A stretch of 55,078 bases of DNA from an uncultured Bacillales bacterium. GTDB taxonomy: Bacteria > Bacillota_I > Bacilli_A > RF39 > UBA660. Positions 12,272 to 32,123 of the stretch are shown here, in pieces. The notes under the pieces were generated by a model. That model saw only the letters and a program-made list of their open reading frames with translations. It made no database searches and was not told the DNA's origin. The first letter of the stretch is position 1; every line of letters begins with the position of its first letter. The DNA lies in contig CAMJTE010000001.1 in NCBI GenBank assembly GCA_946408655.1, forward strand, positions 1-55,078. Direction: 5' to 3'. Both the position numbers and the translations under genes were made by a program.

Positions 12272-12282
12272 ATTTCACCACA

Positions 12283-16604: not shown

Positions 16605-17143
16605 GCAAACACCGTCCCAAAATTAGTGGTCTCTCCACCATTTAAAAAATTATCCAAAATCATTCTTAAATCATCATTACTAGTCTGCGTAGCAGTAAGA
16701 CCTGCAGCAGCAAAATTATTAATTAAATTTCTAATACGTTTCTGAATAATATCAGTATCTTTATGCTTAAACAAAAGATAATACTCAGTATCAACAACAC
16801 TATTTCTAACAAACATAGTAGCCTTATCCATATCCTCAGAAATAATCTTTCTTTGAACAGGCGATACACTAGAATTATATAGAACCTGAAGTTCAGACAA
16901 ATAGACATTAATATCTACCGGCCTATCAGCAGCAATAATCCAAAACTCATAATCAATAACATTATATACAGTCTTTAAATTAGTAATAATCGCACTCTGA
17001 GTAGCAGGATCAAGAATAAAAATATTCCTTGGCATAATCTTCACACCAGATACCTTCATCTTATTATCAAGTTCAATCATCCCACTTGCAATAGATTTAA
17101 CCGGAACATCAGTATATCTACTTTTTATCGTCTTCTTCGCCAT
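16601..17143 (-). CDS. Protein resembling the detached N-terminal domain of Gram-positive VirB4-type ATPases
   Basis: The probable start is MAKKTIK at 17143 (the ORF track start is 17203). The pattern VPVKSI..GMIELDN..VSGVKIMPRNIF.L....Q..II..L matches my recollection of the N-terminus of Tn916 Orf16, ConE and TcpF-type proteins. 181+595 aa is close to the usual ~800 aa. Confidence 0.5.
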   Translation of the reverse strand: MAKKTIKSRYTDVPVKSIASGMIELDNKMKVSGVKIMPRNIFILDPATQSAIITNLKTVYNVIDYEFWIIAADRPVDINVYLSELQVLYNSSVSPVQRKIISEDMDKATMFVRNSVVDTEYYLLFKHKDTDIIQKRIRNLINNFAAAGLTATQTSNDDLRMILDNFLNGGETTNFGTVFA

Positions 17144-17441
17144 CGTTATAACACCAACCTCTCCATATATATTTTTGTCTTGTAGTATAAAACTCCCAAG
17201 CAAGTTTGATCACAGTCCTAATATTATGATAATTAGGAACAGGAAAAACCAAAAATGCACTAATTACCCCCGGAGCCAAAGCAATAATCGCAAATAGAAA
17301 CCCCTCAATAGGTAATATCAGTAACATTAATAATGAAACACCTACACCAACAAGAAATAAAGCCAAATCAAACTTCGTAAACAAACCAAATAGTAACATC
17401 GACTTCTTCGAGTTAGCCGGTATCAAATACATATTATCCAT
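17118..17441 (-). CDS. Small two-TM T4SS membrane protein (VirB3/PrgI/TcpE-like)
   Basis: 107 aa. Two adjacent TM helices and a basic/aromatic C-terminal segment. It lies directly upstream of the VirB4 genes, as in Gram-positive T4SS loci. Confidence 0.5.
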   Translation of the reverse strand: MDNMYLIPANSKKSMLLFGLFTKFDLALFLVGVGVSLLMLLILPIEGFLFAIIALAPGVISAFLVFPVPNYHNIRTVIKLAWEFYTTRQKYIWRGWCYNDGEEDDKK

Positions 17442-17461
17442 ATAGTATCACATCCTTTTTA

Positions 17462-19462
17462 TTATCCAATAGTAGATTTATCAGCTTGAACTTTTCTTTG
17501 TTGTTTTCCAAGATCTTTGATTTTTTGCTCATTGTCTGCAATTTTTTCTCTATCCGAACTAATACTCTGTTCAAGTGCAAAATTATCATTTGTAAATTTA
17601 TTCTTATCCGCATCCAATCCTGCTGCATCCTTCGCAGCATTTGTTCCACGCATAGCAGCATATGCAGAATAATTATTCTTTAAATCATCATCAGTAGCCA
17701 AATTTGCATTTATCCAAGCATCACGTCCAGTTGTATTTGCATATGTTTCAGCATCAAATTTAAGTTCAGATGCCTTGGCACCACGTTCTTGATCATTAGA
17801 CCATTTATATATTTTTCCATTAACGGTTACACTTCCTTTAGAAGCTTTACTAGATAACAATCCATCAGCATTATTTAAATAATCTTTATAAATTTGTCCT
17901 GCTGCGCCACTACCTTGTTTAACTTTTTTTACACCTCGATCTTGGATTTTTTCAATATATCCTGATGCCTTATTATTCTCTGATATTTTTCTCTCGGTAG
18001 GAGCAATTTTTGCCTGCAAGTCTTTATTTTCATTTTCATATTGTTTAACTCGTCTTTCAACTCTAGATTCAGCACCACCAAATCCAGTCTTTTTTGCAAA
18101 TCTTGCACCTAATCTTCCATGCCAAGTTGATCCATTCATTCGAGCATCTCTTAATTTACTTGCATAATCAGCTTGATGTTTTGCAGCATCGCCAAAGCCT
18201 TTACCACTCATAAATCCCGCTGCTGCACCTCTAAGTCCTCTTCCATGCATTGCTCCAATCGCTAATCCACCTGCAGCTCCTGTAATTCTTTTTCCACCTA
18301 CTGCTCCTTCTTCTAATTTCTTAAGTGGATTAAGACTAAACTTACCATCACCTTCAATTTTAACCCCCATATTTTCAAGTATCTTTGGTAATTGTTTTAT
18401 GAACATTAATACTCCAATAATAACAAATATTTTAACCCAACCATTCGTTATTTGTGAACCATTAACTATATCATACATTCCCATATCTGCTACTTTAGTT
18501 ATAATATATATACCAAAGTATAGTGCAAGCAATCTAATAAATAAACTTAAAAATGTTGAAACACACATCTTATACCATTTTGAAAACATGCCATCTTTTC
18601 CACTTTTTGGATCCATATATGATATAACTGGTATTGGATATATTAATTGTAAGAAAGCGAGTTTTACACTTCTAACGCCAATATCTATACAGAATGATAT
18701 TAATAGTAAGCATACTACAACCGCAGTAACGGTTGATAATGGTTTTTTATAATCTATTATAAAGTGTTGATCTGATGGAGTGTCTTCATCTTCTGCATCA
18801 TTTGTAGTTGCTAAAGCTGTCGATGTTCTAAATGTAAGCCCAAGACTTTTATTTGCAATACCATAAGTATAATTTTCTAGATGAGGGCTATTAAGTCCAG
18901 CAGACTCTAAAGCATTAGTACAAGCCTCGCTAAAGTCACCATTTTCATCAACCATGTTCATACATTCTGAAAGACCTTCTACAGAATAATTTGGACTAAA
19001 GAAAGGCATCATTACATAAAATGCCATTCTATTACCCGCTGTATCAAGAATAGTCGATTCTCCTTCACCTTGTATCTTCTCACCTAAAAGGAGTTTAGCA
19101 AGTATATTATCATCTAACACTTTGGCTTGTAAACTAAATGCCATTTGAAAAATATATGGCACTAAAACTAAAAGCACAAGAGATATAACTGAACTTTGAA
19201 TAAGTTTACCAAAGCCTTTGCTTTTATCTGAAAATTCATCTGGATTAACCACATATGTAATCAACGAAAAAGAAACTTTGAACAGCATAAAAATTCCAAG
19301 TAATATTTCTATTCTAGCTGCAAAAGACGCTATATCTCCTTGAGATAATATAGACGTTCTTGAAATAGCTATTAATAAATCATATAGAGTTCCTATAAAA
19401 TTAAACAAAGTGGTATCTAATGACATAAAGAATCTAACCATTAATTTTTCAAACCACAACAT
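17462..19462 (-). CDS. Polytopic T4SS channel protein (VirB6/TrbL/TcpH/ConG-like)
   Basis: 666 aa. About 6-7 TM helices in the first ~370 aa, then a Gly-rich amphipathic stretch and a coiled-coil C-terminal region. The position is typical for a VirB6 analogue. Confidence 0.55.
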   Translation of the reverse strand: MLWFEKLMVRFFMSLDTTLFNFIGTLYDLLIAISRTSILSQGDIASFAARIEILLGIFMLFKVSFSLITYVVNPDEFSDKSKGFGKLIQSSVISLVLLVLVPYIFQMAFSLQAKVLDDNILAKLLLGEKIQGEGESTILDTAGNRMAFYVMMPFFSPNYSVEGLSECMNMVDENGDFSEACTNALESAGLNSPHLENYTYGIANKSLGLTFRTSTALATTNDAEDEDTPSDQHFIIDYKKPLSTVTAVVVCLLLISFCIDIGVRSVKLAFLQLIYPIPVISYMDPKSGKDGMFSKWYKMCVSTFLSLFIRLLALYFGIYIITKVADMGMYDIVNGSQITNGWVKIFVIIGVLMFIKQLPKILENMGVKIEGDGKFSLNPLKKLEEGAVGGKRITGAAGGLAIGAMHGRGLRGAAAGFMSGKGFGDAAKHQADYASKLRDARMNGSTWHGRLGARFAKKTGFGGAESRVERRVKQYENENKDLQAKIAPTERKISENNKASGYIEKIQDRGVKKVKQGSGAAGQIYKDYLNNADGLLSSKASKGSVTVNGKIYKWSNDQERGAKASELKFDAETYANTTGRDAWINANLATDDDLKNNYSAYAAMRGTNAAKDAAGLDADKNKFTNDNFALEQSISSDREKIADNEQKIKDLGKQQRKVQADKSTIG

Positions 19463-19516
19463 AGTTATTCACCGCTTCCTTTTTCATAATTTTTTACAAT
19501 AAATCATTCTGATAGA

Positions 19517-19545
19517 ATTATATCAAAAAAGGCATAAAAAAACAA
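19517..19545 (-). promoter_or_regulatory. Candidate promoter for the VirB6-to-VirD4 operon
   Basis: Minus strand reads TTGTTT, 17 nt, then TGaTATAAT (extended -10). The -35 overlaps the upstream terminator stem. Confidence 0.3.
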
Positions 19546-19559
19546 GCATGAAGCTTGCT
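19534..19559 (-). terminator. Intrinsic terminator (probably partial) after the fourth VirB2-like gene
   Basis: Minus strand reads agcaagc-ttcat-gcttgtt, a 7-bp stem that includes one G-U pair. It is followed by a T-rich run. Confidence 0.5.
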
Positions 19560-19565
19560 AAAAAA

Positions 19566-19958
19566 TTAATTACGTAATTGACAAGATGCCGATGTATTAT
19601 CACTTGCATTACCACTTACAAAGCAGTTAAAACAACTCATAATACTGTTTTCATCAGTTCCTGCAACAAATCTAACAACTAATTGAACTAATGATACTAC
19701 AAAGAATACGATAACTGCGGCAATTAATCTTTTTATAAAAGTAGTTTGATTTTTCTTAATTTCATCTTCCTTACCAGCAATAACCGCCTTAGCTAAGTCT
19801 AACATACCAAAAATAATTAATAAAATTGGAACAATAATTTTAATTAACATTACGATTGTAGATACTACATATGGAAACATACCACTAAATACAAAATTAT
19901 TAATATTTCCACAAGAATACTCTAACCCCATATCAACTTTTGCCAAAATTTCAAACAT
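19566..19958 (-). CDS. VirB2/TrbC-like two-TM protein, paralog 4 (no cleavable signal peptide)
   Basis: 130 aa. TM1 (IKIIVPILLIIFGMLDL), charged loop AGKEDEIKKNQTTFIKR, TM2, and a Cys-rich tail (SCFNCF...SC). It has its own promoter and terminator. Confidence 0.5.
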   Translation of the reverse strand: MFEILAKVDMGLEYSCGNINNFVFSGMFPYVVSTIVMLIKIIVPILLIIFGMLDLAKAVIAGKEDEIKKNQTTFIKRLIAAVIVFFVVSLVQLVVRFVAGTDENSIMSCFNCFVSGNASDNTSASCQLRN

Positions 19959-19982
19959 ATCTTTTCCTCCTAAACTAATTTA

Positions 19983-20011
19983 ATTATATATCTTAATAAC
20001 AATTTTGTCAA
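19983..20011 (-). promoter_or_regulatory. Consensus sigma-A promoter for paralog 4
   Basis: Minus strand reads TTGACA (20011-20006), an exact 17-nt spacer, then TATAAT (19988-19983). AGGAGG RBS downstream. Confidence 0.75.
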
Positions 20012-20017
20012 TATACG

Positions 20018-21100
20018 CTATTTTATTATATAAGGATCTTTTTCAGTTCCACTACCAGATATAAATAGCTCTTCTCCATCAATATAAATAACCCAATGAT
20101 ACTTTTGATATCTGCTTGTCTCTGCTAACTCTACACCAATAGAATTAATTAAATAAGCTACCGAATCATCTTCAGATACTGTATCAACTGTCCAACTATA
20201 ATCTATAAAATTAGCAATATAATTATAATTTGTACATGACAAATCACCAATTTTCTTACAATTTGCATCATAACTTGCCTGTAAGAAATCAGTTATACTT
20301 GGTAAAGTAATTAACTGTCCATCCAATGTTTCATTACATTCAGTAGTAATACCAAGACTTAAATCTTCTTTAGAACGTTTTCCTATACATACACTATGAG
20401 GAACAATTTTACCTCTAATATCATTATTCATTGTTTTATCATTTTTATAATCATATAGTAATCTATCTATAATTACACTATCTTTATAATTATTAATACC
20501 AGTATAAGAATTCTTATTTATATTATACTTATTATCCCAGTTAAAAGACATATCTTGAGCTTTTTCTTTAATAAGTTTTAAATTACCATTAGAATCTATC
20601 TTAATTATTCTATATATAGTTCCATAGAAAGATAAATAATTCTTAACCTTATTACCTTTAAAAATGTATTCATCCCCAATTTTATAAAGACCAGAACCAG
20701 CTTCAACAACATCTTTCATTAAATAATCTTTTAAGTACTCAGTCTTATAATTATCACATTCTAAATATGGAATATATGAATAATATTTACCTTCAGTAGT
20801 ACTATTATTCTTAACAACAACACTACCACTACAACTTGAATCCTTCAAAGCTTTATCTGGACTTTTTAATCCATCATCAATTAAATTATCAAGTTTTATA
20901 ATAGTACTCTTACCATTCTTAGGTAAGATTTTATGATTTTTAGCATAATTTTTTGCCCTATTCATCATCATTTCTTCATATTTAGAATATGATTTTTTAC
21001 TGCTACAACCTCTAAGAAGTGCCATAAGTAAAATAAACAGTAAGGGCAACGATATTAATACAACACACGTTACCAAAAATTTTGAATCTAACTTTTTCAT
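20018..21100 (-). CDS. Exported (possibly lipid-anchored) protein of unknown function
   Basis: Start reassigned to MKKLDSKF at 21100, where AGGTGA lies 4 nt upstream (track start 21130). Hydrophobic N-terminus ending LLRGC. About 320 aa extracytoplasmic with several Cys. Confidence 0.55.
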   Translation of the reverse strand: MKKLDSKFLVTCVVLISLPLLFILLMALLRGCSSKKSYSKYEEMMMNRAKNYAKNHKILPKNGKSTIIKLDNLIDDGLKSPDKALKDSSCSGSVVVKNNSTTEGKYYSYIPYLECDNYKTEYLKDYLMKDVVEAGSGLYKIGDEYIFKGNKVKNYLSFYGTIYRIIKIDSNGNLKLIKEKAQDMSFNWDNKYNINKNSYTGINNYKDSVIIDRLLYDYKNDKTMNNDIRGKIVPHSVCIGKRSKEDLSLGITTECNETLDGQLITLPSITDFLQASYDANCKKIGDLSCTNYNYIANFIDYSWTVDTVSEDDSVAYLINSIGVELAETSRYQKYHWVIYIDGEELFISGSGTEKDPYIIK

Positions 21101-21108
21101 TAAATCAC

Positions 21109-21549
21109 CTAGTCTTCTTGGGTTGCGCAAGTATCACCAGTACCATTAATAAAACAGTTAACACAATTTATCATGTCTTTAGATTTTCCAGAATCCGCAA
21201 CAAAACTTATAAGTAATTTAACTATTACAAAGACAAAGAATACAATTGCAGCGGCAATAAGTCTTTTTACAAAAGTCATCTGATTCTTTTTTATTTCGTC
21301 TTCTTTACCCGCAATAACAGCTTTAATTAAATCAATCATACCAAATACAACAAGAACAACTGGCACAACAATTTGAATAACCAAAAAAATTATATGAACT
21401 GTATCTGCAATTTTTGCATCAATTAAAAGTTCATGCTCACCTTTGGTTAAGAAATTATCACAACCAAGAATACTTTTAGTAGCATACACAGGACTTGCCA
21501 TAAGACAACACATAACAATTAACAATAAATAACTTAATTTCTTTTTCAT
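21109..21549 (-). CDS. VirB2/TrbC-like two-TM protein, paralog 3
   Basis: 146 aa. Signal peptide ending PVYA. TM1, loop AGKEDEIKKNQMTFVKR, TM2, tail NCVNCFINGTGDTC. Confidence 0.5.
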   Translation of the reverse strand: MKKKLSYLLLIVMCCLMASPVYATKSILGCDNFLTKGEHELLIDAKIADTVHIIFLVIQIVVPVVLVVFGMIDLIKAVIAGKEDEIKKNQMTFVKRLIAAAIVFFVFVIVKLLISFVADSGKSKDMINCVNCFINGTGDTCATQED

Positions 21550-21560
21550 AAATTCACTCC

Positions 21561-21968
21561 TTACTTACAATTACTTGCGTTATTTATAAAACATTCAACG
21601 CATCCCCAAATTCCATCACTATCTCCGCCTATCGCACTAATAAGCAGTTTAACAATTACAAAAACAAAGAACACAAGTGCACCCATTACTAATCTTTTAA
21701 TAAACATTCCTTGGGCTTTTTTAATATCATCATCTTTACTTGATGATACAGCTTTTAAAAAATCAATAGATCCCATTATTATTAATATAACTGGTACTGC
21801 TATTTGCAATACATTAATCACCGTGTTAGATAACTGTAAAACCTTATATGGTAAATTCTTAATACTACCACAGGTAACATAAGTACCTTTCGCATACACA
21901 GGCGTAGATAATATAAAAGCAATTATTAGTGTAATAATATATTTAAATTTATTTTTCATAATCACCAC
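21561..21968 (-). CDS. VirB2/TrbC-like two-TM protein, paralog 2
   Basis: 135 aa. Signal peptide ending PVYA. TM1, loop SSKDDDIKKAQGMFIKR, TM2, tail GCVECFINNASNC. Confidence 0.5.
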   Translation of the reverse strand: MVIMKNKFKYIITLIIAFILSTPVYAKGTYVTCGSIKNLPYKVLQLSNTVINVLQIAVPVILIIMGSIDFLKAVSSSKDDDIKKAQGMFIKRLVMGALVFFVFVIVKLLISAIGGDSDGIWGCVECFINNASNCK

Positions 21969-22436
21969 TTACTCAGTTACACAACTCTTATTATTTAAAA
22001 AGCAATTCGCACACTTCATAATATTTCCTTTATCACTCGCATCTGCAACCACACTAATTAACAATTTAACAATTACAAAGACAAAGAATACAAGCGCACC
22101 TACAATTAACTTTTTAACAAAAGCCATTTGTGCTTTTTTTATTTCATCTTCTTTACCAGCAGTAACAGATCTAATTAGTGTAATCATTCCCATTATAATT
22201 AATATTATTGGAACAACAACTTGAATAATATTATAAGCTATATTTACAGTCTTTACAATGCTCTTTGGGACATGCTTAACCATCCCTCCACCACAGCTTA
22301 CCTTATCCGTATTCAAGTTTTCATATGACTCACCAGATAAATCAACATTTTCATCTGCTGCATAAACAACATTTCTCACACCAAATTGTACCACAAATAA
22401 TGCGATAATTGCAAATAAAACATATATTTTCTTCAT
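21969..22436 (-). CDS. VirB2/TrbC-like two-TM protein, paralog 1
   Basis: 155 aa. Signal peptide ending VVYA. TM1, loop AGKEDEIKKAQMAFVKK, TM2, tail KCANCFLNNKSC. Confidence 0.5.
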   Translation of the reverse strand: MKKIYVLFAIIALFVVQFGVRNVVYAADENVDLSGESYENLNTDKVSCGGGMVKHVPKSIVKTVNIAYNIIQVVVPIILIIMGMITLIRSVTAGKEDEIKKAQMAFVKKLIVGALVFFVFVIVKLLISVVADASDKGNIMKCANCFLNNKSCVTE

Positions 22437-22445
22437 AAAATCACC

Positions 22446-23330
22446 CTATAGTTTCAATTTATCTATTAAATTATTTATCAAATCACTATTATGTCTTTCA
22501 TTTAACATTGGTAATACATAATATGCTTTTATATGTGATTCACTCTCAAATTCTTTTATCTCATCATTAGTTAAAGGACTTTTATTAAGTATTACCTTTT
22601 TATCTTTCAAAGAATTAAAAGTAGTAGGATCAACCATCATAGACTCATTTATTCGAATCATAGTTGGTTCAACCAAATAAATAATTTCATCACAATATTT
22701 TACCGCATTTTTAGAATTATTCAAGTCTATTAAGATAATATCTGTATTTCCATACTTTTCTAAAGTCATATCAATTGCATTATCTTGAATAGAAATCATC
22801 TCTTTATTGTAAAAAAAATTAAAATCTAACTTATCTATTTCTAAAGCTAGTACCTTACGTGCTTTATCTAAATGCTTTTTTAATATATATATTAAAGTAG
22901 TAGATCCTGCATGCTTAGTTACATTCTTAAATCCGATAGTTTTTGTTATTTTTTTACTTTTATTAACAAGTATAATTGCATCATCATAATTGTTAGGATT
23001 ACTATATAACTCTACTATATGTTCTGCAGTATAAGCAATATTATAAATACCAAGTTCAATAATACTATTTAAATATTCTATACTTATATTATCTTTACTT
23101 AATACTAATATTAAATTATCAGGTTTAATAAAACTAATAAGACTTTTAAGTACATTAATATCATTATAATTATTTAAAGAAGTAATATCTATAATAGCCT
23201 TCTCATAACTCAAAGAACTTATCTCATTAAATAATACACCAACATCATAAGTACCATTCAACCTTTTTACGGTTGCAATAGAAATACTATCAATAATACT
23301 ACTATTTAAATTCTCAATTACTATATTCAT
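22446..23330 (-). CDS. Possible TadZ/CpaE-like pilus localisation protein (degenerate ParA/MinD fold)
   Basis: 294 aa, cytoplasmic. N-terminal receiver-like ~120 aa, then a degenerate P-loop-like segment (GFKNVTKHAGSTTLIYIL). The position beside the pilin genes fits TadZ. Motif support is weak. Confidence 0.35.
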   Translation of the reverse strand: MNIVIENLNSSIIDSISIATVKRLNGTYDVGVLFNEISSLSYEKAIIDITSLNNYNDINVLKSLISFIKPDNLILVLSKDNISIEYLNSIIELGIYNIAYTAEHIVELYSNPNNYDDAIILVNKSKKITKTIGFKNVTKHAGSTTLIYILKKHLDKARKVLALEIDKLDFNFFYNKEMISIQDNAIDMTLEKYGNTDIILIDLNNSKNAVKYCDEIIYLVEPTMIRINESMMVDPTTFNSLKDKKVILNKSPLTNDEIKEFESESHIKAYYVLPMLNERHNSDLINNLIDKLKL

Positions 23331-23342
23331 ACATTCTCCTAA

Positions 23343-23855
23343 CTAATTGTAATATGTCCTAGTCTCTCCATAAACAGGAGTAGAAAACAAACTACCTATA
23401 CCAAGAACATTTATATTTAAATGACTAAAAGTAACAACAGTATAATAATATTCACTGCTACTTAAAGTAGTTTTATAAACACAATATCCATTATTACTAG
23501 AATTAGTATATACTGGTTCAGTCTTTGGATATTCAGCCTCTTCATCCGTATCTTTATCTAGTGCTTTCTTTTCTACTTTAGCAAATATCTTACCATTACA
23601 TAAATCAGAATCATTCAAATGATAACCCATGTTTTTTAAAGTACTCACAATACTATTAATACAAGAATCATCTTCAAAACAAGTTTTACCAGTACTACTA
23701 TTTACAATATAATATCTATCAAGTGCACTTATTATATTATTCTTAGCCTTATAAGCACTAGTATACATATTAGAAGCAATTAGTATAGCCCCAACTATAC
23801 CTACTACAATAATAACTATATATACAAGCATAGTACTTCCAACCGCATCTTTCAT
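23343..23855 (-). CDS. Pseudopilin/TadE-F-like protein with MKDAVG leader
   Basis: 170 aa. N-terminus is MKDAVG then STMLVYIVIIVVGIVGAILI. The globular domain has 4 Cys. Confidence 0.5.
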   Translation of the reverse strand: MKDAVGSTMLVYIVIIVVGIVGAILIASNMYTSAYKAKNNIISALDRYYIVNSSTGKTCFEDDSCINSIVSTLKNMGYHLNDSDLCNGKIFAKVEKKALDKDTDEEAEYPKTEPVYTNSSNNGYCVYKTTLSSSEYYYTVVTFSHLNINVLGIGSLFSTPVYGETRTYYN

Positions 23856-23869
23856 GCGTCACCTCCTAA

Positions 23870-24382
23870 TTAACAAGTAGAACCATAACAATTATACATA
23901 GTAGACGTACGAGAAGACATTTTGATAGGTACATTAAAATTAAATAAACCAAAATCTAAATTCATACCAGTAGTAACTTTATAACTATAATATTCATAAT
24001 CAGGTGCAGAATCACTAGATTTATCATTAATAATATATACACAGTATCCTCTATAACCTAATTCACTTGCACTAGCAGAATTATTATCATTAATAATAGA
24101 TCCATCAGCCTTAACAAGCCTTACCTTATTATTATTAAAATCATCATTTCCAACACTACATCCACTATTACTTCTGGTATAACCATAACTAGTAAGTCTC
24201 TTTTCAATTTCTTCCTTAGAATAGTCATTAAATCCACCATAGTCCTCAATAGCAGCCGTCAAACTATTATTAATCTTATAAGACTTATAATAACTCAAAG
24301 TAGATATAATAAATCCAAACATAATTATAACAAAAAAAATAACTACATAAATAGCAGAAACAGCCCCAGTACTTTCTTTCAT
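23870..24382 (-). CDS. Pseudopilin/TadE-F-like protein with MKESTG leader
   Basis: 170 aa. N-terminus is MKESTG then AVSAIYVVIFFVIIMFGFII. The globular domain contains Cys residues. Confidence 0.5.
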   Translation of the reverse strand: MKESTGAVSAIYVVIFFVIIMFGFIISTLSYYKSYKINNSLTAAIEDYGGFNDYSKEEIEKRLTSYGYTRSNSGCSVGNDDFNNNKVRLVKADGSIINDNNSASASELGYRGYCVYIINDKSSDSAPDYEYYSYKVTTGMNLDFGLFNFNVPIKMSSRTSTMYNCYGSTC

Positions 24383-24385
24383 AAA

Positions 24386-24601
24386 TTAGTTACACGCTCC
24401 ATCAGAGTCCATTGTACACTTTTGACCCAAATCATTATGACAACTGCCATCATAATAAGAATAACCAGCGTTTTCACAATTAGCTCTTTTGCTTTGATTA
24501 GACAATAGAGTTGTCATAATAACAACTAATGTCGCTATTACTCCTGCAATCAAAGTAATAGTTATAATTGTCATTGCAGATTCTCCAACTGCTTCTTTCA
24601 T
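24386..24601 (-). CDS. Small pilin-like protein (Flp-sized) with MKEAVG leader and 4-Cys C-terminus
   Basis: Start reassigned to the second ATG at 24601. GGAG abuts the first ATG and sits 9 nt before the second. 71 aa: MKEAVG then a hydrophobic helix. Tail is CENAGYSYYDGSCHNDLGQKCTMDSDGAC. Confidence 0.55.
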   Translation of the reverse strand: MKEAVGESAMTIITITLIAGVIATLVVIMTTLLSNQSKRANCENAGYSYYDGSCHNDLGQKCTMDSDGACN

Positions 24602-24685
24602 TAAAATCATCTCCTATTACATTTATATCAGAAGAAAAGTAATTAAAGTAATATACCTTTCTTCTAATACAAATATCATTTTGTA

Positions 24686-24886
24686 TTAGCTATTTTTTAC
24701 ACATTTTCCACTTGATAAAGTATATCCATCTGGACAAACATCTACTGGATTCTCACTAATATTGGCAGTGCTTGAATTTGCCTTATTAGTCATAATTAAT
24801 ACAATTGCTGCTGCTGCTGCCAATAGACCAACTATTACTACTATAGTGACAACTGTCATACTTCCTTCTCCTGTTGCTTCCTTCAT
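24686..24886 (-). CDS. Small pilin-like protein (Flp-sized) with MKEATG leader and 2-Cys C-terminus
   Basis: 66 aa. MKEATG then EGSMTVVTIVVIVGLLAAAAAIVLIM. Tail is CPDGYTLSSGKC. Strong AGGAGGTGA RBS. First gene after a consensus promoter. Confidence 0.6.
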   Translation of the reverse strand: MKEATGEGSMTVVTIVVIVGLLAAAAAIVLIMTNKANSSTANISENPVDVCPDGYTLSSGKCVKNS

Positions 24887-24915
24887 TTAAATATCACCTC
24901 CTGTATTTTTATTAG

Positions 24916-24944
24916 ATTATATCACATATTTCATTTGATATCAA
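24916..24944 (-). promoter_or_regulatory. Near-consensus sigma-A promoter of the pilin operon
   Basis: Minus strand reads TTGATA (24944-24939), a 17-nt spacer, then TGaTATAAT (-10 at 24921-24916). Confidence 0.7.
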
Positions 24945-24952
24945 TAAAGTAA

Positions 24953-25010
24953 ATGGTTTAACCGTATTTTTTTTGTTAAATTATGTAAAAATATTACGGT
25001 TTAACCGTAA
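24953..25010. promoter_or_regulatory. Operator-like sites upstream of the pilin promoter
   Basis: Perfect 8-1-8 palindrome ttacggtt-t-aaccgtaa at 24994-25010. A related imperfect copy (atggtttaaccgta) sits at 24953-24966, about 9 nt upstream of the -35. Confidence 0.4.
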
Positions 25011-25028
25011 TAAGGTATTATATTTAAT

Positions 25029-25069
25029 TAAAAAGTGCTATAAAAATTTTTTTGTAGCACTTTTTTTTA
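25029..25069. terminator. Bidirectional hairpin terminator
   Basis: aaagtgcta / tagcacttt stem, extendable through an A5/T5 segment. T8 follows on the plus strand and T-rich sequence follows on the minus strand. Confidence 0.65.
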
Positions 25070-25081
25070 TCTTTATGATTA

Positions 25082-25333
25082 TTATAGTTCCTCTATTTTT
25101 TCCTTAGATAATCCTGTAATACTTTCAATATCCAATATGTCAATTCCCTTTAATTTCATTTTCTTTGCCATATCTAAAGTATTTTTTTCAGTAACTTCCT
25201 TAATTACTTCTTCAGTAACCTTTTTCGTTGGTGCTTCTACTGCATACTCAATATTAGCTTCAAATACTTCTTTTAAATACTCTTCCCTATCATAAGCTAC
25301 TATTACATCATCTTCAAAACTATATCTCTTCAC
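25082..25333 (-). CDS. Hypothetical 83-aa protein, possibly a gene remnant
   Basis: GTG start with no convincing RBS. The C-terminal GIDILDIESITGLSKEKIEEL looks like an HTH tail. It may not be functional. Confidence 0.3.
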   Translation of the reverse strand: MKRYSFEDDVIVAYDREEYLKEVFEANIEYAVEAPTKKVTEEVIKEVTEKNTLDMAKKMKLKGIDILDIESITGLSKEKIEEL

Positions 25334-25516
25334 AATATCACTTATTTCTTTTAATAATTCGTTTCACTTGACGATTTTTTCTTACATTTCTACTTCATAA
25401 ATGACTATTACCATTATTAGAGCTATAGTATCTTACTAACTAAAAATGACTGCTTTTTATATATATTTTTTTTTATTATCTGATTAATATAATGATTCTA
25501 AACTATCTCAACATTA

Positions 25517-26338
25517 TTATACTTGAACAGTCTCTAAAGATTCAAAAAATAAAATTACACTAGTAATAACTTCATTTATTGGAATTTCAAGCCAATTACT
25601 TCTTGCGTTATCTAGTTTTGAGATAAATCTTTTATTTTTTAATATCATTTTTAATCGTAATACTATATTGTTTATACTATTCTGGTTTATATTCTTATCT
25701 TTAATAAGCAATAAATCTATATATTTAATTAGTTTATCTTTATTTAATATATTATTTTTTATTAAATAATAAAAATCAAATATATCTTTATATCTAGTAG
25801 AACGAATACCAAATTTTAATAATGAATTTAACTTTTCGCATACAATTTGTTCAGGTGAATTTATGAGCAAAGAAATGCTACCATCTAAAATGTTAAAATC
25901 AAATACATATTCATCTTGTTCTATTTCAAAATATTTATGAACGCCAATATCCAGCTTAGTTTCAAGAGAATTATTATATTTATCATTAATCAAAATATTT
26001 ACCCGCTTTCCATCATATAATTGATGATGCAAATTTTTTATATCACCGTTAATTTTTATCGTTGTCTCTCTATCACTTTTATTTAATTCATTTATAAAGT
26101 TTATTATGCTATCATCTTTAAGAGAATACTTGATAAAATCTAAATCTAAGTCACGAGTTGCACGTCTTCTATTTTTTCTTATATTATGCATTACAACTCC
26201 ACCTTTAATTGTAACATTATAATTATATTTAATTTTACCTATTTTATATAAAATTATATCTTGACAAACCTTTGACTGAGCATCGACTAGTTCATATCCA
26301 AATGACAAATAATTATTAACAAGTTCAATTAAATTCAT
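25517..26338 (-). CDS. AbiEii/AbiGii-family nucleotidyltransferase toxin
   Basis: 273 aa. IKGGVVMH..RATRDLDLDF nucleotidyltransferase motif. Start and stop are coupled with the upstream antitoxin gene. Confidence 0.75.
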   Translation of the reverse strand: MNLIELVNNYLSFGYELVDAQSKVCQDIILYKIGKIKYNYNVTIKGGVVMHNIRKNRRRATRDLDLDFIKYSLKDDSIINFINELNKSDRETTIKINGDIKNLHHQLYDGKRVNILINDKYNNSLETKLDIGVHKYFEIEQDEYVFDFNILDGSISLLINSPEQIVCEKLNSLLKFGIRSTRYKDIFDFYYLIKNNILNKDKLIKYIDLLLIKDKNINQNSINNIVLRLKMILKNKRFISKLDNARSNWLEIPINEVITSVILFFESLETVQV

Positions 26339-26877
26339 TAAAATACCTCATCTTGTATCATTTCAAACAGTCTATCTTCATACGGAAAAAAAGGTAAATA
26401 TCTTTCTATCTTTTCCATATCTAATTCATCAATTATTTTTCGATAATTTATAATTATTTCTTTATACATATCATATCCCATTTTATTTTTACTTCTAACG
26501 AGTTCAATAAGCATTCTTTCTTTATCATATATATTAAATTTTATTCCACTTATCTCCGTTTTTGTTATTCCTAAATTAAATAACTCATCAGTTAATCTAA
26601 CCTGCTTTATAAAATTGGATCTAATTGTATCATTTTTAGTAGTTGCTAGAATTATCTTTGGTGGAATAAAATCAGTTAAATTATGATAATAATATGCAGA
26701 ATCTCCATATAAAACAAAACTAGGATATTTTTTTGCAATTACTTCAATATAGTTTACATTAGGATTATCTGAGTATAATCCACCATCAACCTTAAAAAAC
26801 TTTTTTTCTTCAACTGCCTTCTGAATTTGATAATTAGACTTTAGTATTTCTTTTAATTCTTTATGAAAATATAACAT
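26338..26877 (-). CDS. AbiEi/AbiGi-family antitoxin/regulator
   Basis: 179 aa. Pattern GGLYSD...EVIAKKYP.FVLYGDSAYYYHNLTDFIPPKI is typical of AbiEi-type proteins. It lies directly upstream of the toxin gene. Confidence 0.65.
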   Translation of the reverse strand: MLYFHKELKEILKSNYQIQKAVEEKKFFKVDGGLYSDNPNVNYIEVIAKKYPSFVLYGDSAYYYHNLTDFIPPKIILATTKNDTIRSNFIKQVRLTDELFNLGITKTEISGIKFNIYDKERMLIELVRSKNKMGYDMYKEIIINYRKIIDELDMEKIERYLPFFPYEDRLFEMIQDEVF

Positions 26878-26898
26878 TATATCACCAGAATTAATTTT

Positions 26899-26944
26899 AC
26901 ACTAAATGACACACTTTATCAACGGTTAATGTGTCATTTAGTGT
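26899..26944. promoter_or_regulatory. Inverted repeat upstream of abiEi (candidate operator)
   Basis: 15-bp perfect arms acactaaatgacaca / tgtgtcatttagtgt separated by 16 nt. It sits 22 nt upstream of the abiEi start. Confidence 0.5.
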
Positions 26945-27009
26945 ATTTGGTATGTTTGTGATTTTAATTTTTGTATTTTTTTATTAATTGTACTTAAAAT
27001 CGCAACAAT

Positions 27010-27900
27010 CTATACCAACTCATATCTTCTTGCAATTATTCTCTCATCAGAACAATATTCAATTACACAACTATTTTCTTTCTTACAAATAATAATACCT
27101 ACTGTTTTATTATCATCAAGTTCTTTTACATTCTTATCTATATAATTCATATAGTTTTGTATTTGTCCTGTATGTTTAGAATTTATTTCAGTTACTTTTA
27201 ATTCAATAACTACATAACATCTAAATTTAATATTATAAAGTAGGATGTCAATATAATTATATCTATCTTTAAGTTTTATAGGATATTCACTCCCAATAAA
27301 AATAAATGAATTACCTAACTCTTTCATAAACGACTGTATATCCTCTAATATTAATTTTTGTAATACTTTTTCTGATATATCATCAAGGTTATTACTATTT
27401 CTAATACGTATAGGATTTTTAACAAAATCTACTATAGCAGTTTTTTTCTTAGTAATAAGTTTATTTTTAGAATCATCAGGTAACCTTTCATATTCATTTG
27501 ACTTTATTCTAGTTCTTAACTGTCTAACTGATAAGTTTTGTTGTTCGCATATTTTTATATAATATATAACTTTCTTAATATCATCGAATCTTAAAATTTC
27601 ATCATAGTGACTCCAAGATAATTTTGCCGACAGTGTCGGCAATTTTCCTTTTGAAATAAAATTATAATATTTTAGCATTTTATATAATAATCTAGCACTA
27701 TAACTTTTTCCTAAATCATTTTGCAACTTATGTGAGTATTCTTTTATAATCCCATCACCATAATGCTTACCTGCATCCATCAGCATTTTTCCAACATTAT
27801 AATAAGTATTTAAATCACTTTTATTAATTGAATAATTTTTTGCTCTTTTGTTTATTTCATTATTAATTAATTCATTCTTTATCTCATTATAATAATTCAT
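27010..27900 (-). CDS. PDDEXK nuclease-fold protein, YhcG/DUF1016 family
   Basis: 296 aa. LSWSHYDEILR motif. C-terminal FIGSEYPIKL..YIDILLYNIKFRCYVVIELKV..TGQIQNYMNY restriction-endonuclease-like core. Confidence 0.75.
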   Translation of the reverse strand: MNYYNEIKNELINNEINKRAKNYSINKSDLNTYYNVGKMLMDAGKHYGDGIIKEYSHKLQNDLGKSYSARLLYKMLKYYNFISKGKLPTLSAKLSWSHYDEILRFDDIKKVIYYIKICEQQNLSVRQLRTRIKSNEYERLPDDSKNKLITKKKTAIVDFVKNPIRIRNSNNLDDISEKVLQKLILEDIQSFMKELGNSFIFIGSEYPIKLKDRYNYIDILLYNIKFRCYVVIELKVTEINSKHTGQIQNYMNYIDKNVKELDDNKTVGIIICKKENSCVIEYCSDERIIARRYELV

Positions 27901-28001: not shown

Positions 28002-28793
28002 TTATATCATGAGAGTCATTGACATGAAAAGCAACATCATTACTCCTCCACCTGTTGCGAATAACATTACCATGGTTTTCTTTTCCATCTTATCTAATCT
28101 TTCTTGATACTTTATTTCTCTTGCTTTATTTTGTAGTGTTGATACCATACGAGAGAATGCCATTACTTGTTCTTGTTTATTATCTTGTGAACCAAGACTT
28201 AATCTATATAATAGTCTCATCATTCTCATTGAATCTCTTACTGGGTATTCTTCTGCAAAATCTGTATATGGTTTTATTGATGAATCTCCAGAATCAATTT
28301 TAGCGACTAATTTTAAAAGTCCTCTTTTAAATACTTCTGGTGCGGTTTCTATGCTTCTTGATAAAGCAATAGGAACTGTATAGTGTTGAACAAGTATTTC
28401 TAGTCCTTTTAAATAGTATGGTAATAATAAATCTATAGTATGCAAATGCGCTTTATACATTCTCTTTAGTTTTGCATATGGCATTTTAAATACTAATAGA
28501 GCAAGTACTACAGCAAGAAATATAACGATAAAGGCAAATTTACCTGCTAGTATTGATAAGAATAATACTATTAGAAATGTTAATACTGCATTTCTAATTC
28601 TTTTTTCAAACATTTCTTCTAGATCTATATCTTCATCTTCATATCTTAATCTTACTAAGAATTCATAATCATCTTCTCCTATATTTCTAAATATAGGAGA
28701 TAATTCTTTAATAAATTTATTACCATCAAATACTTTATTATATATAAATATAAATACTAAAGTAGCAGTAACTAATACATATATTAATCCCAT
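28002..28793 (-). CDS. TadC-like pilus platform protein (T2SSF-type)
   Basis: 263 aa. N-terminal TM, a central TM pair, a ~120-aa cytoplasmic helical domain and a C-terminal TM. The topology and pairing with the upstream paralog match TadB/TadC. Confidence 0.6.
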   Translation of the reverse strand: MGLIYVLVTATLVFIFIYNKVFDGNKFIKELSPIFRNIGEDDYEFLVRLRYEDEDIDLEEMFEKRIRNAVLTFLIVLFLSILAGKFAFIVIFLAVVLALLVFKMPYAKLKRMYKAHLHTIDLLLPYYLKGLEILVQHYTVPIALSRSIETAPEVFKRGLLKLVAKIDSGDSSIKPYTDFAEEYPVRDSMRMMRLLYRLSLGSQDNKQEQVMAFSRMVSTLQNKAREIKYQERLDKMEKKTMVMLFATGGGVMMLLFMSMTLMI

Positions 28794-29692
28794 TATTCTG
28801 CACCTACATTCTCATTATAATATTTTTCTCCACTTAGCAAGAAATATGAATTCATAAATACTAATAAATGTATGAGTAATTTTAAATACCACATAGATAA
28901 TAGTTGTGAATAAGTGTCTCCTAATAACAACTGTATTAAAGCAATCATACCATAAAGCATAATACCAAATCTAATAAATTTCTTATGGAAGTTTGCTCTA
29001 TCTATTCTATCCCTATATACAGCCTCTACTAGCATATCTATATCAAGACTCATATTTTCTAGAGATTCTTGTGAATCTTTCGCACCTTCATTAGTTATTT
29101 GTAAGAATAACTGATGCATATTTTTAACCATGTAATAATCATACTTGTTTTGAAAATACTCAAGTGATTGATTAATAGTTCCATTTTTATAAGCTAAATC
29201 TATCATTACTTTAACATCGCTTTTTACCGGATCTTCTAATACACCTGATTCATATACACCTTCTAAAGATTTAACAAATGACTGGGATGTTTGAAAATCC
29301 AAGATAATATTTGTTGTATATGTTTGTACTTGTTCAAAGATAAATTCACTATATAACCTTTTGCATCTTAAGTATTCTAAGTATGGAATAAAAGCTATAG
29401 CTATACCTGCATATATTATCGCAACTACTATATCATAAAAATATAAAAATCCCATCGCACCTGCAATACCACCAAAGATAACTATTTGTCTTAAATAATC
29501 TTTAAATTTGTAGTTTTGACCTAACTGTCTTATTTTTACTCTAATCTCTTTATAAGTATAAGGTGCGATTTTATCATATACTGGGCCTAAACTTCCAGTA
29601 ATCTCTTTATATACATCTTTACCACCAGTACTTCTATAAAAAACTATAAACAATAGTATTACACCTACTAGTAAAAATATTATCTGTATCAT
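28793..29692 (-). CDS. TadB-like pilus platform protein (T2SSF-type)
   Basis: Start reassigned to MIQIIFLL at 29692, where AGGAGGTG lies 5 nt upstream (track start 29710). Same TM/cytoplasmic-domain/TM topology as TadB. Confidence 0.6.
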   Translation of the reverse strand: MIQIIFLLVGVILLFIVFYRSTGGKDVYKEITGSLGPVYDKIAPYTYKEIRVKIRQLGQNYKFKDYLRQIVIFGGIAGAMGFLYFYDIVVAIIYAGIAIAFIPYLEYLRCKRLYSEFIFEQVQTYTTNIILDFQTSQSFVKSLEGVYESGVLEDPVKSDVKVMIDLAYKNGTINQSLEYFQNKYDYYMVKNMHQLFLQITNEGAKDSQESLENMSLDIDMLVEAVYRDRIDRANFHKKFIRFGIMLYGMIALIQLLLGDTYSQLLSMWYLKLLIHLLVFMNSYFLLSGEKYYNENVGAE

Positions 29693-29702
29693 ATCGCACC
29701 TC

Positions 29703-30818
29703 CTATTCAAAAATTATTTGATTATTATTAATTGTTGAATTTACACTTTCTGTATTATTGTCATCTGTTGGAATAATAATATTCCTGTCCATTCTAACTC
29801 CTTGAGCTTCCAAATAATCAAATAAATACTTACTTGGATTTTTTCTAGTAATATGTCCATCTGGAGTCTTTCTATAAATAGTATTATACTTAGCCTCATT
29901 ATCTTCAGTTACATAAAACTCTGTTACTTCTGCAATTTCTCTTATCATTCTATGTGTAGTAGCATCTTGATAAGCACGAATATATACACCTAGTTGAATA
30001 TATCTATAAATAGATTTTAAGAATTGATCTATATCTTGATTAGTCTCAAGTAATGAATACATTCTGTTTGGTATAGATGCAGCCTTATCAGCATGTATTG
30101 TCGATAAAATGTAATGTCCAGATGATATTGAGTTTCTAACCGCCATTACAGCTTCTGCACTTCTTACCTCTGATAGTAATATCCATTTAGGATTCTGTCT
30201 CATACAAGTAACAAGAACATCTGAATAACTAGCAATGTTATTTGTCTTCATAGCTACTATATCTCGTTCTGGAAATATTCTATCAAGATGGAGTTCTAGA
30301 GTATCTTCAATTGTAATAATTTTCTCATCTACTTTAGTATTGGCAGCTAAATACTTAATAAATTCAGTCTTACCACTACCAGTTTCTCCACATACCATAA
30401 TATTAGTATGACCGTGCACACATTGTATTAAAAAGTTAAGAATATCTTCAGTAATATATTTTTCCTGTATTATTTTATTTCTCTCTAACCTTATTTTAGC
30501 TGGTGTCTTTCTTATAACACATGCAATACCATTTCTAGCTATTGAGTCGTGAACAAAATTAATACGAAGTTGTTCTGATTCACTATCCAAAAAAGGATGA
30601 GCTGCATTGAAACTTCTACCTACTACATTCGCACATTGAAAAGCTAGCTTGTCCATAAAATTATCATCAATACCAGGATTATTTACTCTAAATGTACCAT
30701 GGGATAATGTTCTAAGCCAAAGTTGTCCACCGTTATCATAAGATATATCTGTAACATCATCGTTATCTAGGTATTGCTGTAAAGGTCCAAAGTCCATTTC
30801 ATCAAAAACATTATCCAC
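29703..30818 (-). CDS. TadA/CpaF-type secretion ATPase (T2SSE/VirB11 superfamily)
   Basis: 371 aa. Walker A GETGSGKTE, Asp box ITIEDTLEL, Walker B ILLSEVRSAEA, His box STIHA. GTG start preceded by GAGGTG. Confidence 0.85.
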   Translation of the reverse strand: MDNVFDEMDFGPLQQYLDNDDVTDISYDNGGQLWLRTLSHGTFRVNNPGIDDNFMDKLAFQCANVVGRSFNAAHPFLDSESEQLRINFVHDSIARNGIACVIRKTPAKIRLERNKIIQEKYITEDILNFLIQCVHGHTNIMVCGETGSGKTEFIKYLAANTKVDEKIITIEDTLELHLDRIFPERDIVAMKTNNIASYSDVLVTCMRQNPKWILLSEVRSAEAVMAVRNSISSGHYILSTIHADKAASIPNRMYSLLETNQDIDQFLKSIYRYIQLGVYIRAYQDATTHRMIREIAEVTEFYVTEDNEAKYNTIYRKTPDGHITRKNPSKYLFDYLEAQGVRMDRNIIIPTDDNNTESVNSTINNNQIIFE

Positions 30819-31719: not shown

Positions 31720-31730
31720 ATTAACTCCTT

Positions 31731-32123
31731 TCAATTCTTAGTTTCTAATATAGCATCTACTTTATTAACTAGATCAAATTTTAATACATCACTAGTTCCT
31801 TTTTCAGTAGAAGATACTTTAATACTTACCTTAGGTGGTTCTTCATTAATATCATATATATCTATTTGATAATTTCTAGATAAAGATGCATTTTCCGCAA
31901 ATCTTCTTAAAAATATTTCAATAAATTTATCTTTATCTATTTTTACAATTCCATTTTCTAGTGATTCTTTATCTACTGCATCATACATTGCAGCCTCAGT
32001 AGTTTCCCGAAGAAGTGTGTAATTATGTTGATCAGCAGTAGAAACACGTTGCATAAAGAAGATAAATACTATCGCAATTATCCCAAACATTATTATGAAA
32101 TATGCCCAAATCGAATCTTTCAT
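31731..32123 (-). CDS. Small N-terminally anchored protein (possible minor pilin or TadE/G-like)
   Basis: 130 aa. MKDSIW then a hydrophobic helix. Its start abuts the stop of the upstream 828-aa gene. Confidence 0.35.
   Translation of the reverse strand: MKDSIWAYFIIMFGIIAIVFIFFMQRVSTADQHNYTLLRETTEAAMYDAVDKESLENGIVKIDKDKFIEIFLRRFAENASLSRNYQIDIYDINEEPPKVSIKVSSTEKGTSDVLKFDLVNKVDAILETKN

Follow-up and report, generated by a model that had tools for sequence, protein, structure and literature searches.

Neighbouring pilin-like genes with a shared MK[ED]xxG head beside a type IV secretion system in an uncultured Bacillales bacterium

Results

Four neighbouring genes with a common N-terminal head

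The DNA described here (the window) is a stretch of 55,078 nucleotides (nt) from an uncultured Bacillales bacterium (assembly GCA_946408655.1, contig CAMJTE010000001.1), with a G+C content of about 26%. Four neighbouring genes on its minus strand encode proteins that share the head MK[ED]xxG: two small proteins, here called small pilins 1 and 2, and two longer minor-pilin-like proteins, A and B (Table 1). A first-pass annotation of this DNA had singled out these open reading frames (ORFs) as pilin- or pseudopilin-like genes with a shared non-canonical leader. Our analysis recovers all four on the minus strand and agrees that the head is non-canonical, and the pilin-like nature of the proteins is supported by genomic context, N-terminal architecture, conservation, an AlphaFold model, and a promoter and hairpin in the style of a major pilin.

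The start codon of small pilin 2 had been moved in that annotation, rightly so in view of the ribosome-binding spacing and the starts of its orthologues: the ATG of the listed 74-aa (amino acid) ORF abuts an AGGAG, the ATG of MKEAVG lies 9 nt past AGGAG, and orthologues in three related loci (L005, L006, L009) start with MKEAVG or MKESVG. The pattern ATG-AAR-GAN-NNN-NNN-GGN occurs five times in the window against 0.34 expected, a count that was reached in 0 of 100 shuffles, and four of the five occurrences are the start codons of the pilin-like genes. The fifth, at 54634, opens a soluble 218-aa protein and is coincidental.

In each of the four proteins a short leader with Gly at position -1 precedes a hydrophobic helix some 20 residues long (20-23 for the hydrophobic stretch as a whole). 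Counted from Gly6, the residue at +1 is E, E, A, and S in gene order and that at +5 is T, T, I, and V; the small pilins thus combine Glu +1 with Thr +5 and Val/Ile +6, and the 170-aa proteins have Ile/Val +5 and Tyr +6. None of the four has the hydrophobic +1 residue (Phe/Met) and Glu +5 of type IV pilins, and neither the Flp signature G/xxxxEY nor GFTLxE is present, as had been noted before: there is no Glu at +5, and Tyr +6 is confined to the 170-aa pair. The FlaFind rule calls for a charged -2 residue (K/R/D/E) ahead of G/A at -1; the four window proteins instead have T, V, T, and V at -2, and the family as a whole has I, V, or T there. A Sec-type signal peptide is ruled out by the overlong hydrophobic segment of about 23 residues and the non-basic n-region. 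The proteins also differ from VirB2/TrbC, which combine a Sec signal with a two-helix hairpin: each has one transmembrane (TM) helix and no match to PF04956 or PF18895.

The AlphaFold model of protein A consists of a helix (residues 5-47) followed by an alpha/beta domain with four strands (predicted local distance difference test, pLDDT, 70). Proteins A and B are paralogues that have their N-terminal 77-87 residues in common (hhalign probability 95%, E = 3.8e-8, residues 1-87). Cys pairs are conserved in the C-terminal parts of the pilin-like proteins. Small pilin 2 is the orthologue of a widespread small pilin (MKEAAGEANMTV...), and small pilin 1 is a lineage-specific paralogue and a candidate for the over-expressed major subunit.

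Table 1. Positions of the pilin-like genes, their expression signals, and the accompanying module and secretion genes in the window.
Feature	Position	Strand	Description
Small pilin 1	24886-24686	minus	66 aa, MKEATGEGSMTVV; MKEATG/EGSMTVV; one TM helix; C-terminal Cys51/Cys62 pair
Small pilin 2	24601-24386	minus	71 aa from corrected start, MKEAVGESAMTII; MKEAVG/ESAMTII; Cys-rich tail
Minor-pilin-like protein A	24382-23870	minus	170 aa, MKESTGAVSAIYVV; MKESTG/AVSAIYVV
Minor-pilin-like protein B	23855-23343	minus	170 aa, MKDAVGSTMLVYIV; MKDAVG/STMLVYIV; paralogue of protein A
Sigma-A-type promoter	24916-24944	minus	TTGATA-17-TATAAT with extended -10 TG; consensus match; about 30 nt upstream of small pilin 1
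Stem-loop	24619-24676	minus	23 bp; 10 nt past small pilin 1 stop; no U-tract; folding free energy -25.4 kcal/mol, z = -4.8
828-aa secreted protein	32124-34610	minus	First gene of module; Sec-type signal, dockerin-like repeat; no LPXTG or C-terminal anchor
DUF5411 protein	31731-32123	minus	130 aa; MKDSIWAYF head and TM helix; Pfam DUF5411 E = 1e-45
CpaB/RcpC-like protein	30853-31734	minus	293 aa; SAF and RcpC domains (weak Pfam matches); TIGR03177 E = 1.9e-11, below curated cut-off
VirB11/TadA-like secretion ATPase	29703-30818	minus	371 aa; T2SSE 92 bits
TadB-like polytopic protein	28793-29710	minus	305 aa; four TM segments; candidate platform protein
TadC-like polytopic protein	28002-28793	minus	263 aa; candidate platform protein
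Operon-splitting insertion	25517-27900	minus	AbiEii toxin, 179-aa partner, YhcG PDDEXK nuclease; not part of the machine
294-aa soluble protein	22446-23330	minus	TadZ position; degenerate Walker-A-like K..T...G[AS]TT, hhhhD / hhhEP motifs
Type IV secretion system	7157-22436	minus	Four VirB2-like, 370-aa protein, VirB6, VirB3-sized, VirB4, hydrolases, VirD4
VirB2-like array	19566-22436	minus	155, 135, 146, 130 aa; two-helix hairpin; three of four with weak PF18895 matches
VirB6/TrbL-like	17462-19462	minus	
VirB4-like	14817-16604	minus	
VirD4 coupling protein	7157-9304	minus	

Conservation of the heads and expression of small pilin 1

Small pilin 1 has 16 homologues, in which M1, K2, E3, A4, G6, E7, and M10 are invariant, and among 55 close homologues of protein A the head MKESTG is nearly invariant. 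For the small pilins as a group we compared 51 distinct sequences from 80 metagenomic loci (L019-L098), which yield the head MK[EA][AS][ATS]G-E-x-[NS]-[LM]-T-[VI] with G6 in 50 of 51 and with E7 and T11 essentially invariant; one subfamily, MKAATGE, has Ala in place of E3. Their tails are of two types, one Cys-rich (..KKACC.DAGG.W..G.C..) and one belonging to proteins of 48-62 aa that mostly lack Cys, end in FFWIMWP.I...IN.QW, and resemble bare Flp-like helices. An exhaustive profile search with the 170-aa minor pilin returned 707 representative clusters. Among 139 representatives no more than 50% identical to one another, residues 1-36 are free of indels and position 6 is Gly in 108, Ser in 25, Ala in five, and Thr in one. 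Positions 2-6 (K/R, E/Q, S/A/G, I/V, G/S/A/T) carry 2.8-3.4 bits, and positions 7-11, corresponding to +1 to +5, carry 1.35-2.3 bits.

The promoter of small pilin 1 is the best match within 22300-25600 (11 of 12 positions). The stem-loop that follows the gene is a probable attenuator or mRNA stabiliser; hairpins occur at the same position in L004, L005, L006, and L009 (z -3.2 to -6.2), and L015 and L058 have terminator-like hairpins in its place. Its own strong promoter and a long hairpin would fit over-production of small pilin 1 as the major subunit.

A Tad-like set of genes upstream

Read 5' to 3' on the minus strand, the module comprises the genes of the 828-aa secreted protein, the DUF5411 protein, the CpaB/RcpC-like protein, the ATPase, and two polytopic proteins, then an insertion, the four pilin genes, and the gene of the 294-aa protein. 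Presence and absence of these genes across related loci were read from a tblastn map. The 828-aa protein is a candidate adhesin; a large secreted protein occupies the same position in L004-L009 and L013-L015, its sequence being conserved solely in the closest loci. Possibly the DUF5411 protein is a fifth pilin-like component, as its MK[DE]S head resembles the pilin heads but has Trp at position 6. Like a Tad/Flp pilus locus, the module encodes a CpaB/RcpC protein, whose orthologue in L058 exceeds the Pfam RcpC cut-off (34.4 bits). With the NCBIfam models the ATPase scores 109 bits for VirB11, 96 for the TadA type, and 86 for FlaI, all under the family cut-offs.

The two polytopic proteins invariably adjoin the ATPase across the related loci. 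The TadB-like protein has no family match in Pfam or NCBIfam. Homologues of its TadC-like neighbour make up more than 6800 protein clusters from gut and rumen metagenomes, and the AlphaFold model of the TadC-like protein is all-helical (pLDDT 70). A Foldseek search with this model against 350,542 PDB chains placed the cytoplasmic domain of GspF/OutF first (probability 0.84, E = 0.74) and that of EpsF third (probability 0.63, E = 1.6). A platform-protein (T2SSF) assignment of the TadB- and TadC-like proteins is no more than suggestive. Aligned by hhalign with the TadB-like protein and with the product of pLS20 gene 39, the TadC-like profile reached a probability of about 12%. In a tblastn search of a plasmid collection the TadB-like and DUF5411 proteins were unmatched and the TadC-like protein found one weak match, in Priestia. 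The TadB-like, TadC-like, and 294-aa proteins, used as queries along with profiles A3 and A4, found nothing relevant among the PDB sequences. Seven of 40 TadC-like proteins (a family that includes P0115 and P0163) match PF23067 (MG280 of Mycoplasma genitalium) over their C-terminal ~50 residues, with a best E of 5.7e-7; these matches may reflect either homology or an effect of TM and coiled-coil composition. A Peptidase_A24 match in one of the 40 (E = 0.061) we take to be noise, since that protein has a soluble helical domain of about 100 residues and lacks a GxGD motif.

In most of the loci whose downstream sequence is long enough, the 294-aa protein is encoded after the pilin genes. It had been called weakly TadZ-like in the first-pass annotation, a label that rests on its position and its degenerate MinD/ParA-like motifs and that gains nothing from the searches: Pfam, NCBIfam, and PDB sequence comparisons, profile A4 included, gave no match to TadZ, ParA, or MinD. 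We regard the assignment as suggestive.

In the window the AbiEii/YhcG genes separate the TadC-like gene from the pilin genes. As the pilin genes directly follow the TadC-like gene in L005, L006, L007, and L009, which have no such genes, the block is a secondary insertion; L004 carries a different insertion at the same point. Two loci, L008 (7295-9856) and L030 (from 10910), have a further gene inserted amid the pilin genes; its product, a membrane protein some 810-850 aa long with roughly 12 TM segments, may, by its look, be a YfhO-type glycosyltransferase.

Prepilin peptidases and a variant of the module

The absence of a prepilin peptidase from the 55 kb, reported in the first-pass annotation, was confirmed and extends to about 95 related loci. 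A six-frame scan of the window revealed no A24 peptidase: the polytopic ORFs encode the VirB6-like, VirB2-like, two platform-like, and UppP/BacA proteins, and the rest are unannotated ORFs outside the scan, most of them opposite to or overlapping called genes. The A24 signature GxGDx[KR] occurs in no membrane ORF of the window. In the related loci (~1 Mb) no ORF carries this motif, no TadV is present, and polytopic ORFs of 110-320 aa are almost all TadB- or TadC-like. Since the same is seen in all these loci, the absence is a property of the whole family and not of the window.

Two loci, L058 and L062, carry a variant of the module with the same order DUF5411-CpaB-ATPase-TadB-TadC-small pilin, the small pilin being MKEAAGEANMTV followed by a terminator. 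Minor pilins of the MKESIG type are lacking in both, as are downstream T4SS (type IV secretion system) genes (10 kb in L058). In this variant the module is flanked by canonical prepilins, MNKRG/FTLVELIG (N_methyl 22.9 bits, above the cut-off) and ...MG/FTLIELL (20.0 bits, with a Big_3 domain). The two flanking proteins with GFTL[IV]E prepilin N-termini in this stand-alone variant (L058 1-20744; L062 1-5982) measure 511 aa and 893 aa, and in L062 the sole start codon before GFTLIE gives a Met-Gly leader. No peptidase is encoded in the 20 kb around L058 (10 kb on each side), and because the prepilins are canonical this genome must encode an unlinked A24 peptidase. Evidently the same machine handles canonical class III substrates. 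L063 was considered as a source of alternative pilin heads and rejected, as its downstream genes look, by eye, like those for the cell-division proteins SepF and DivIVA and for a TasA-type secreted protein.

Short leaders are normal in Firmicutes, an example being Bacillus ComGC (MNEKG/F), and peptidase genes are unlinked in the Com system and in the Bifidobacterium Tad system. In Erysipelotrichales, comG loci are vertically inherited according to a study of Bulleidia (PMC12786226). Such loci require a ComC-type peptidase.

The adjacent secretion system and its genomic setting

Downstream of the module lies a T4SS. The VirB2-like paralogues have the motif AGKEDEIKK.Q..F.KRL in common, and their array is broken by a 370-aa protein without a family match. 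Three CHAP hydrolases and one M23/lysozyme hydrolase are encoded in the cluster (3898-34610), and among the scanned ORFs of the T4SS region there is no relaxase or integrase. The cluster is chromosomal, with RNase R-, rmuC-, and rhodanese-like genes on one flank and scpA/scpB-like genes and uppP on the other; uppP was confirmed with Pfam, and the other flanking genes (RNase R, rmuC, rhodanese, scpA, and scpB) were recognized by eye from their translations. L009 has the same scpAB/uppP neighbours. At the cluster edge, a 612-aa protein (3898-5736) has many tandem copies of a Cys-containing unit (C..GW...G..CYRSATN) and then a CHAP domain; the neighbouring ORF, on the plus strand, is unannotated, encodes 339 aa, and has a zinc-ribbon-like CxxC motif. 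In a second island (44709-54634), a gene for a large serine recombinase (45652-47298) is accompanied by several others of defence-like appearance.

The same gene order is found in metagenome-assembled genomes labelled Erysipelotrichaceae, Bacilli, or Firmicutes and on a circular metagenomic chromosome of 1.54 Mb (L015); one family member is labelled Candidatus Coprosoma intestinipullorum. T4SS genes are present in 29 of the 33 related loci with at least 9 kb of downstream sequence and absent there in L049, L058, L088, and L091. The Tad-like module is thus a unit that can be separated from the T4SS with which it usually occurs.

Discussion

The four genes described here probably encode the subunits of a type IV filament-like (Tad-like) fibre, with two Flp-sized small pilins and two minor pilins of the size of TadE/TadF. 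The ATPase, the TadB- and TadC-like proteins, and the CpaB/RcpC-like and DUF5411 proteins, encoded upstream beyond the AbiEii/YhcG insertion, would assemble the fibre, and the 294-aa protein is probably part of the same machine. The M-K-[E/D]-x-x-G head would most likely be a minimal, non-canonical class III (prepilin) signal, the proteins inserting with the N-terminus in and the C-terminus out. An A24 aspartyl peptidase of the ComC/PilD type, encoded elsewhere on the chromosome, would then cut after Gly6 and leave the small pilins with their invariant Glu +1 and Thr +5 in place of Phe1 and Glu5. The predicted fibre could serve the adjacent relaxase-less T4SS in cell-cell contact, in crossing the thick wall, or in displaying the anchor-less 828-aa protein. 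For now the four proteins are best filed as relatives of type IV filament (Tad-like) subunits that fall outside the Flp, TadE, and N_methyl families, whose defining motifs they lack.

What becomes of the head after insertion? We lean, by a modest measure, towards a minimal non-canonical prepilin signal that is cut after Gly6 by an unlinked host peptidase. Cleavage by a distant enzyme is the most likely outcome because of the L058 variant, the comG loci of Erysipelotrichales, and the short leaders and unlinked comC of the Com system; the canonical prepilins of L058 in particular tilt the balance from no processing towards a distant peptidase. Several observations weigh against this reading. Cleavage at Gly6 is a step that we infer throughout, and no A24 gene is seen in the window or in the ~95 related loci. 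The leader is not basic, since K2 and E3 cancel and no K/R is found at -2. Among the minor pilins 139 of 142 representatives are in register, so that the head has an invariant length; Gly6 is replaced by Ser, Ala, or Thr in 22% of representatives, and the head is better conserved than +1 to +5, the reverse of canonical pilins. None of the four proteins was matched by the N_methyl (PF07963/TIGR02532), Flp/Flp_Fap, or TadE models of Pfam and NCBIfam at E ≤ 1; as a positive control, the N_methyl model scores 22.9 bits with the L058 protein MNKRGFTLVE. A Foldseek search of the PDB with the 170-aa model returned nothing at E < 1 and no pilin, phage coat proteins and antibody chains being its top matches. 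On the side of the machine, T2SSF homology of the platform candidates is below significance (E = 0.74), and no T2SSF match was found in 40 members of the TadC-like family (Pfam, E ≤ 10). Finally, position 6 is T, A, or V in the analogous tiny proteins encoded by plasmids of the pLS20/pXO2 type, though these proteins have no detectable homology to the small pilins.

Several of these points are what one would expect if the same fibre and machine operated with a head that is never removed, apart from possible deformylation, and hence needed no prepilin peptidase. The head (K2, E/Q3, a small residue at 6, and E7 in the small pilins) would then be a functional N-terminus in which an acidic residue stands in for Glu5. 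We regard this as a strong competing account, though a less probable one than cleavage. No A24 gene lies beside the system in any of the ~1 Mb surveyed, the length of the head is fixed in 139 of 142 representatives, its conservation outranks that of +1 to +5, its net charge is about zero, position 6 accepts S, A, and T, and the DUF5411 protein combines an MK[DE]S head with Trp at 6. The analogous proteins of pLS20, pXO2, Enterococcus faecium, and Listeria plasmids likewise have fixed short heads without Gly, and no prepilin peptidase is found in the plasmid stretches examined, nor in the parts of the pLS20-family paper on which we draw (PMC8557374). As no homology between the tiny plasmid proteins and the small pilins can be detected, the plasmid argument is one of analogy only. 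Against an uncleaved head speak the near-invariance of Gly6 in the small pilins, as expected of a cleavage site, the change of E3 to Ala in the MKAATGE subfamily, and the pairing of the same machine with canonical, cleavable prepilins in L058. Moreover, we know of no type IV filament that dispenses with a prepilin peptidase.

Cleaved or not, the proteins might not be fibre subunits at all. They could be bitopic components of the T4SS channel, like VirB8 or VirB10 or a scaffold specific to Gram-positive bacteria, with the ATPase acting as VirB11. Their genes do sit within the T4SS cluster, the ATPase scores highest with VirB11 among the NCBIfam models, the membrane proteins are not proven homologues of T2SSF, and Foldseek with the 170-aa model yields no pilin and only weak NTF2-like matches far down its list. 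We nevertheless think this unlikely, in view of the module's occurrence with no T4SS genes in the 10 kb downstream at L049, L058, L088, and L091, the canonical N_methyl prepilins that accompany it in L058, and the link to CpaB/RcpC. Single-helix proteins of 50-90 aa with their own promoter and attenuator also look like polymer subunits, and the paralogues resemble one another solely in the N-terminal helix, as pilins do. That the two small ORFs encode secreted, Cys-rich bacteriocin-like peptides is very improbable: the 71-aa protein has a YxzE-like bacteriocin match (E = 9e-4), which at 20.6 bits against a cut-off of 40 is sub-threshold and owes its score to the TM segment and the Cys composition. 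Neither protein has a double-glycine or Sec-type leader, in dozens of loci their genes keep a fixed place with platform genes on one side and minor-pilin genes on the other, and one small-pilin subfamily has no Cys at all. A fibre of prepilins processed by a distant peptidase thus remains the account that we prefer.

What would such a fibre mean for secretion in Gram-positive bacteria? We tentatively propose, as a possibility we would put well short of even, that the module represents an unrecognized class of type IV filament, built into a large family of monoderm T4SSs that architecturally includes pLS20, pXO2, and the Enterococcus and Listeria plasmids, with fixed short heads and without a dedicated prepilin peptidase or, possibly, any cleavage. 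It could provide Gram-positive conjugation with its "missing" pilus, or with a device that spans the wall, and could be an anchor for sortase-independent adhesins such as TIE. Gram-positive T4SSs are described as pilus-less (PMC8092201, PMC8557374), a gap that the module would address, and a Tad-like fibre module between adhesin and T4SS genes is a concrete candidate for the anchoring of TIE-type adhesins. The number of TadC-like clusters implies a widespread surface machine of uncultured small-genome Bacilli whose parts are now annotated as hypothetical proteins, so that the finding extends well beyond the window. The known range of class III signals would be widened by a fixed short head with Glu +1 and Thr +5, which escapes the pilin hidden Markov models (HMMs) of Pfam and NCBIfam and does not fit what we take to be the rules of PilFind- and FlaFind-style predictors. 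Should the head stay uncleaved, this would be, to our knowledge, the first type IV filament to work without a prepilin peptidase. In addition, a VirB11-like ATPase so closely paired with platform-like proteins and pilins is relevant to the relationship between the VirB11 of T4SSs and the ATPases of type IV filaments.

Comparison with known systems

In gene order the locus resembles genes 36-42 of pLS20 and their counterparts on plasmids of pXO2 type, of Enterococcus faecium, and of Listeria: an adhesin, a DUF5411-like protein, an ATPase, two membrane proteins, a pseudopilin-sized DUF4320 protein, tiny single-helix proteins, VirB2, and the T4SS. The plasmid VirB11/TadA-like ATPase is ~30% identical to that of the window, the pLS20 gene 36 product matches DUF5411 (E = 6e-5), and the plasmid stretches examined likewise encode no prepilin peptidase. 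In a paper on this plasmid family, pLS20 genes 36-47 are given as being of unknown function and the family is said to have no pilus components (PMC8557374); Gram-positive T4SSs are stated not to develop pili, and how TIE, a sortase-independent adhesin that lacks LPXTG and is encoded just upstream in pLS20, is attached is an open question (PMC8092201). We found no literature on DUF4320. In the one paper that we found to mention DUF5411, machine learning singles out a putative secretion-related operon of Clostridia in which it occurs alongside CpaF and PilC-like genes (PMC9523054). Unlike the window, the plasmids lack CpaB and the 294-aa protein, their systems are self-transmissible and have relaxases, and their DUF4320 and tiny proteins (the latter 47-56 aa) start with MLDQN[TA]DR, MLEGSVM, or MLENNVFR, without a conserved Gly. 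In hhalign comparisons, the minor-pilin profile reached a probability of just 10.7% with DUF4320 (the product of pLS20 gene 40), and the small pilins showed no similarity to the tiny plasmid proteins.

The T4SSs of Patescibacteria (PMC12102498) are, like ours, chromosomal, of monoderm type, without a relaxase, with arrays of VirB2-like paralogues, and found in hosts with small genomes. They belong to another phylum, however, and no Tad-like module has been reported in their clusters. In the literature on Gram-positive T4SSs more generally, including PMC12857230, we found no description of such a module.

The R64 plasmid has its own prepilin peptidase, PilU. Its IncI thin pilus and the pilus of the PAPI-1 island (PMC12857230) share with our locus a type IV filament module that is encoded with a T4SS and is thought to aid mating-pair formation, and in diderms type IV pili assist or replace T4SS pili (PMC12857230). 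Those of R64 and PAPI-1 differ in being canonical type IVb pili of diderms, with canonical leaders and a prepilin peptidase of their own.

The ComG pseudopilus resembles the system in having a monoderm host, in its very short leaders with a final Gly, as in B. subtilis ComGC, and in its unlinked peptidase gene (comC). Some Com minor pilins also lack Glu5. Com pilins nonetheless match N_methyl and keep the F/L/E motifs, and the Com system has one PilC-like protein, ComGB, no CpaB, and no linkage to a T4SS.

The architecture as a whole is most readily compared with Tad/Flp pili (Aggregatibacter, Caulobacter, Bifidobacterium, and the Bulleidia tad locus, PMC12786226). Two small Flp-sized pilins and two pseudopilins of ~170 aa follow the TadE/TadF pattern, and the TadA-like ATPase is followed by two separate polytopic proteins in the TadB/TadC pattern, with a CpaB/RcpC homologue and a protein in the position of TadZ. 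Here, in contrast, the G/xxxxEY signature, a tadV in or near the locus, and HMM matches to Flp, TadE, T2SSF, and TadZ are all missing; in their stead the small pilins carry Glu +1 and Thr +5 behind a fixed, short, non-basic leader, and the module includes DUF5411 and is joined to a T4SS.

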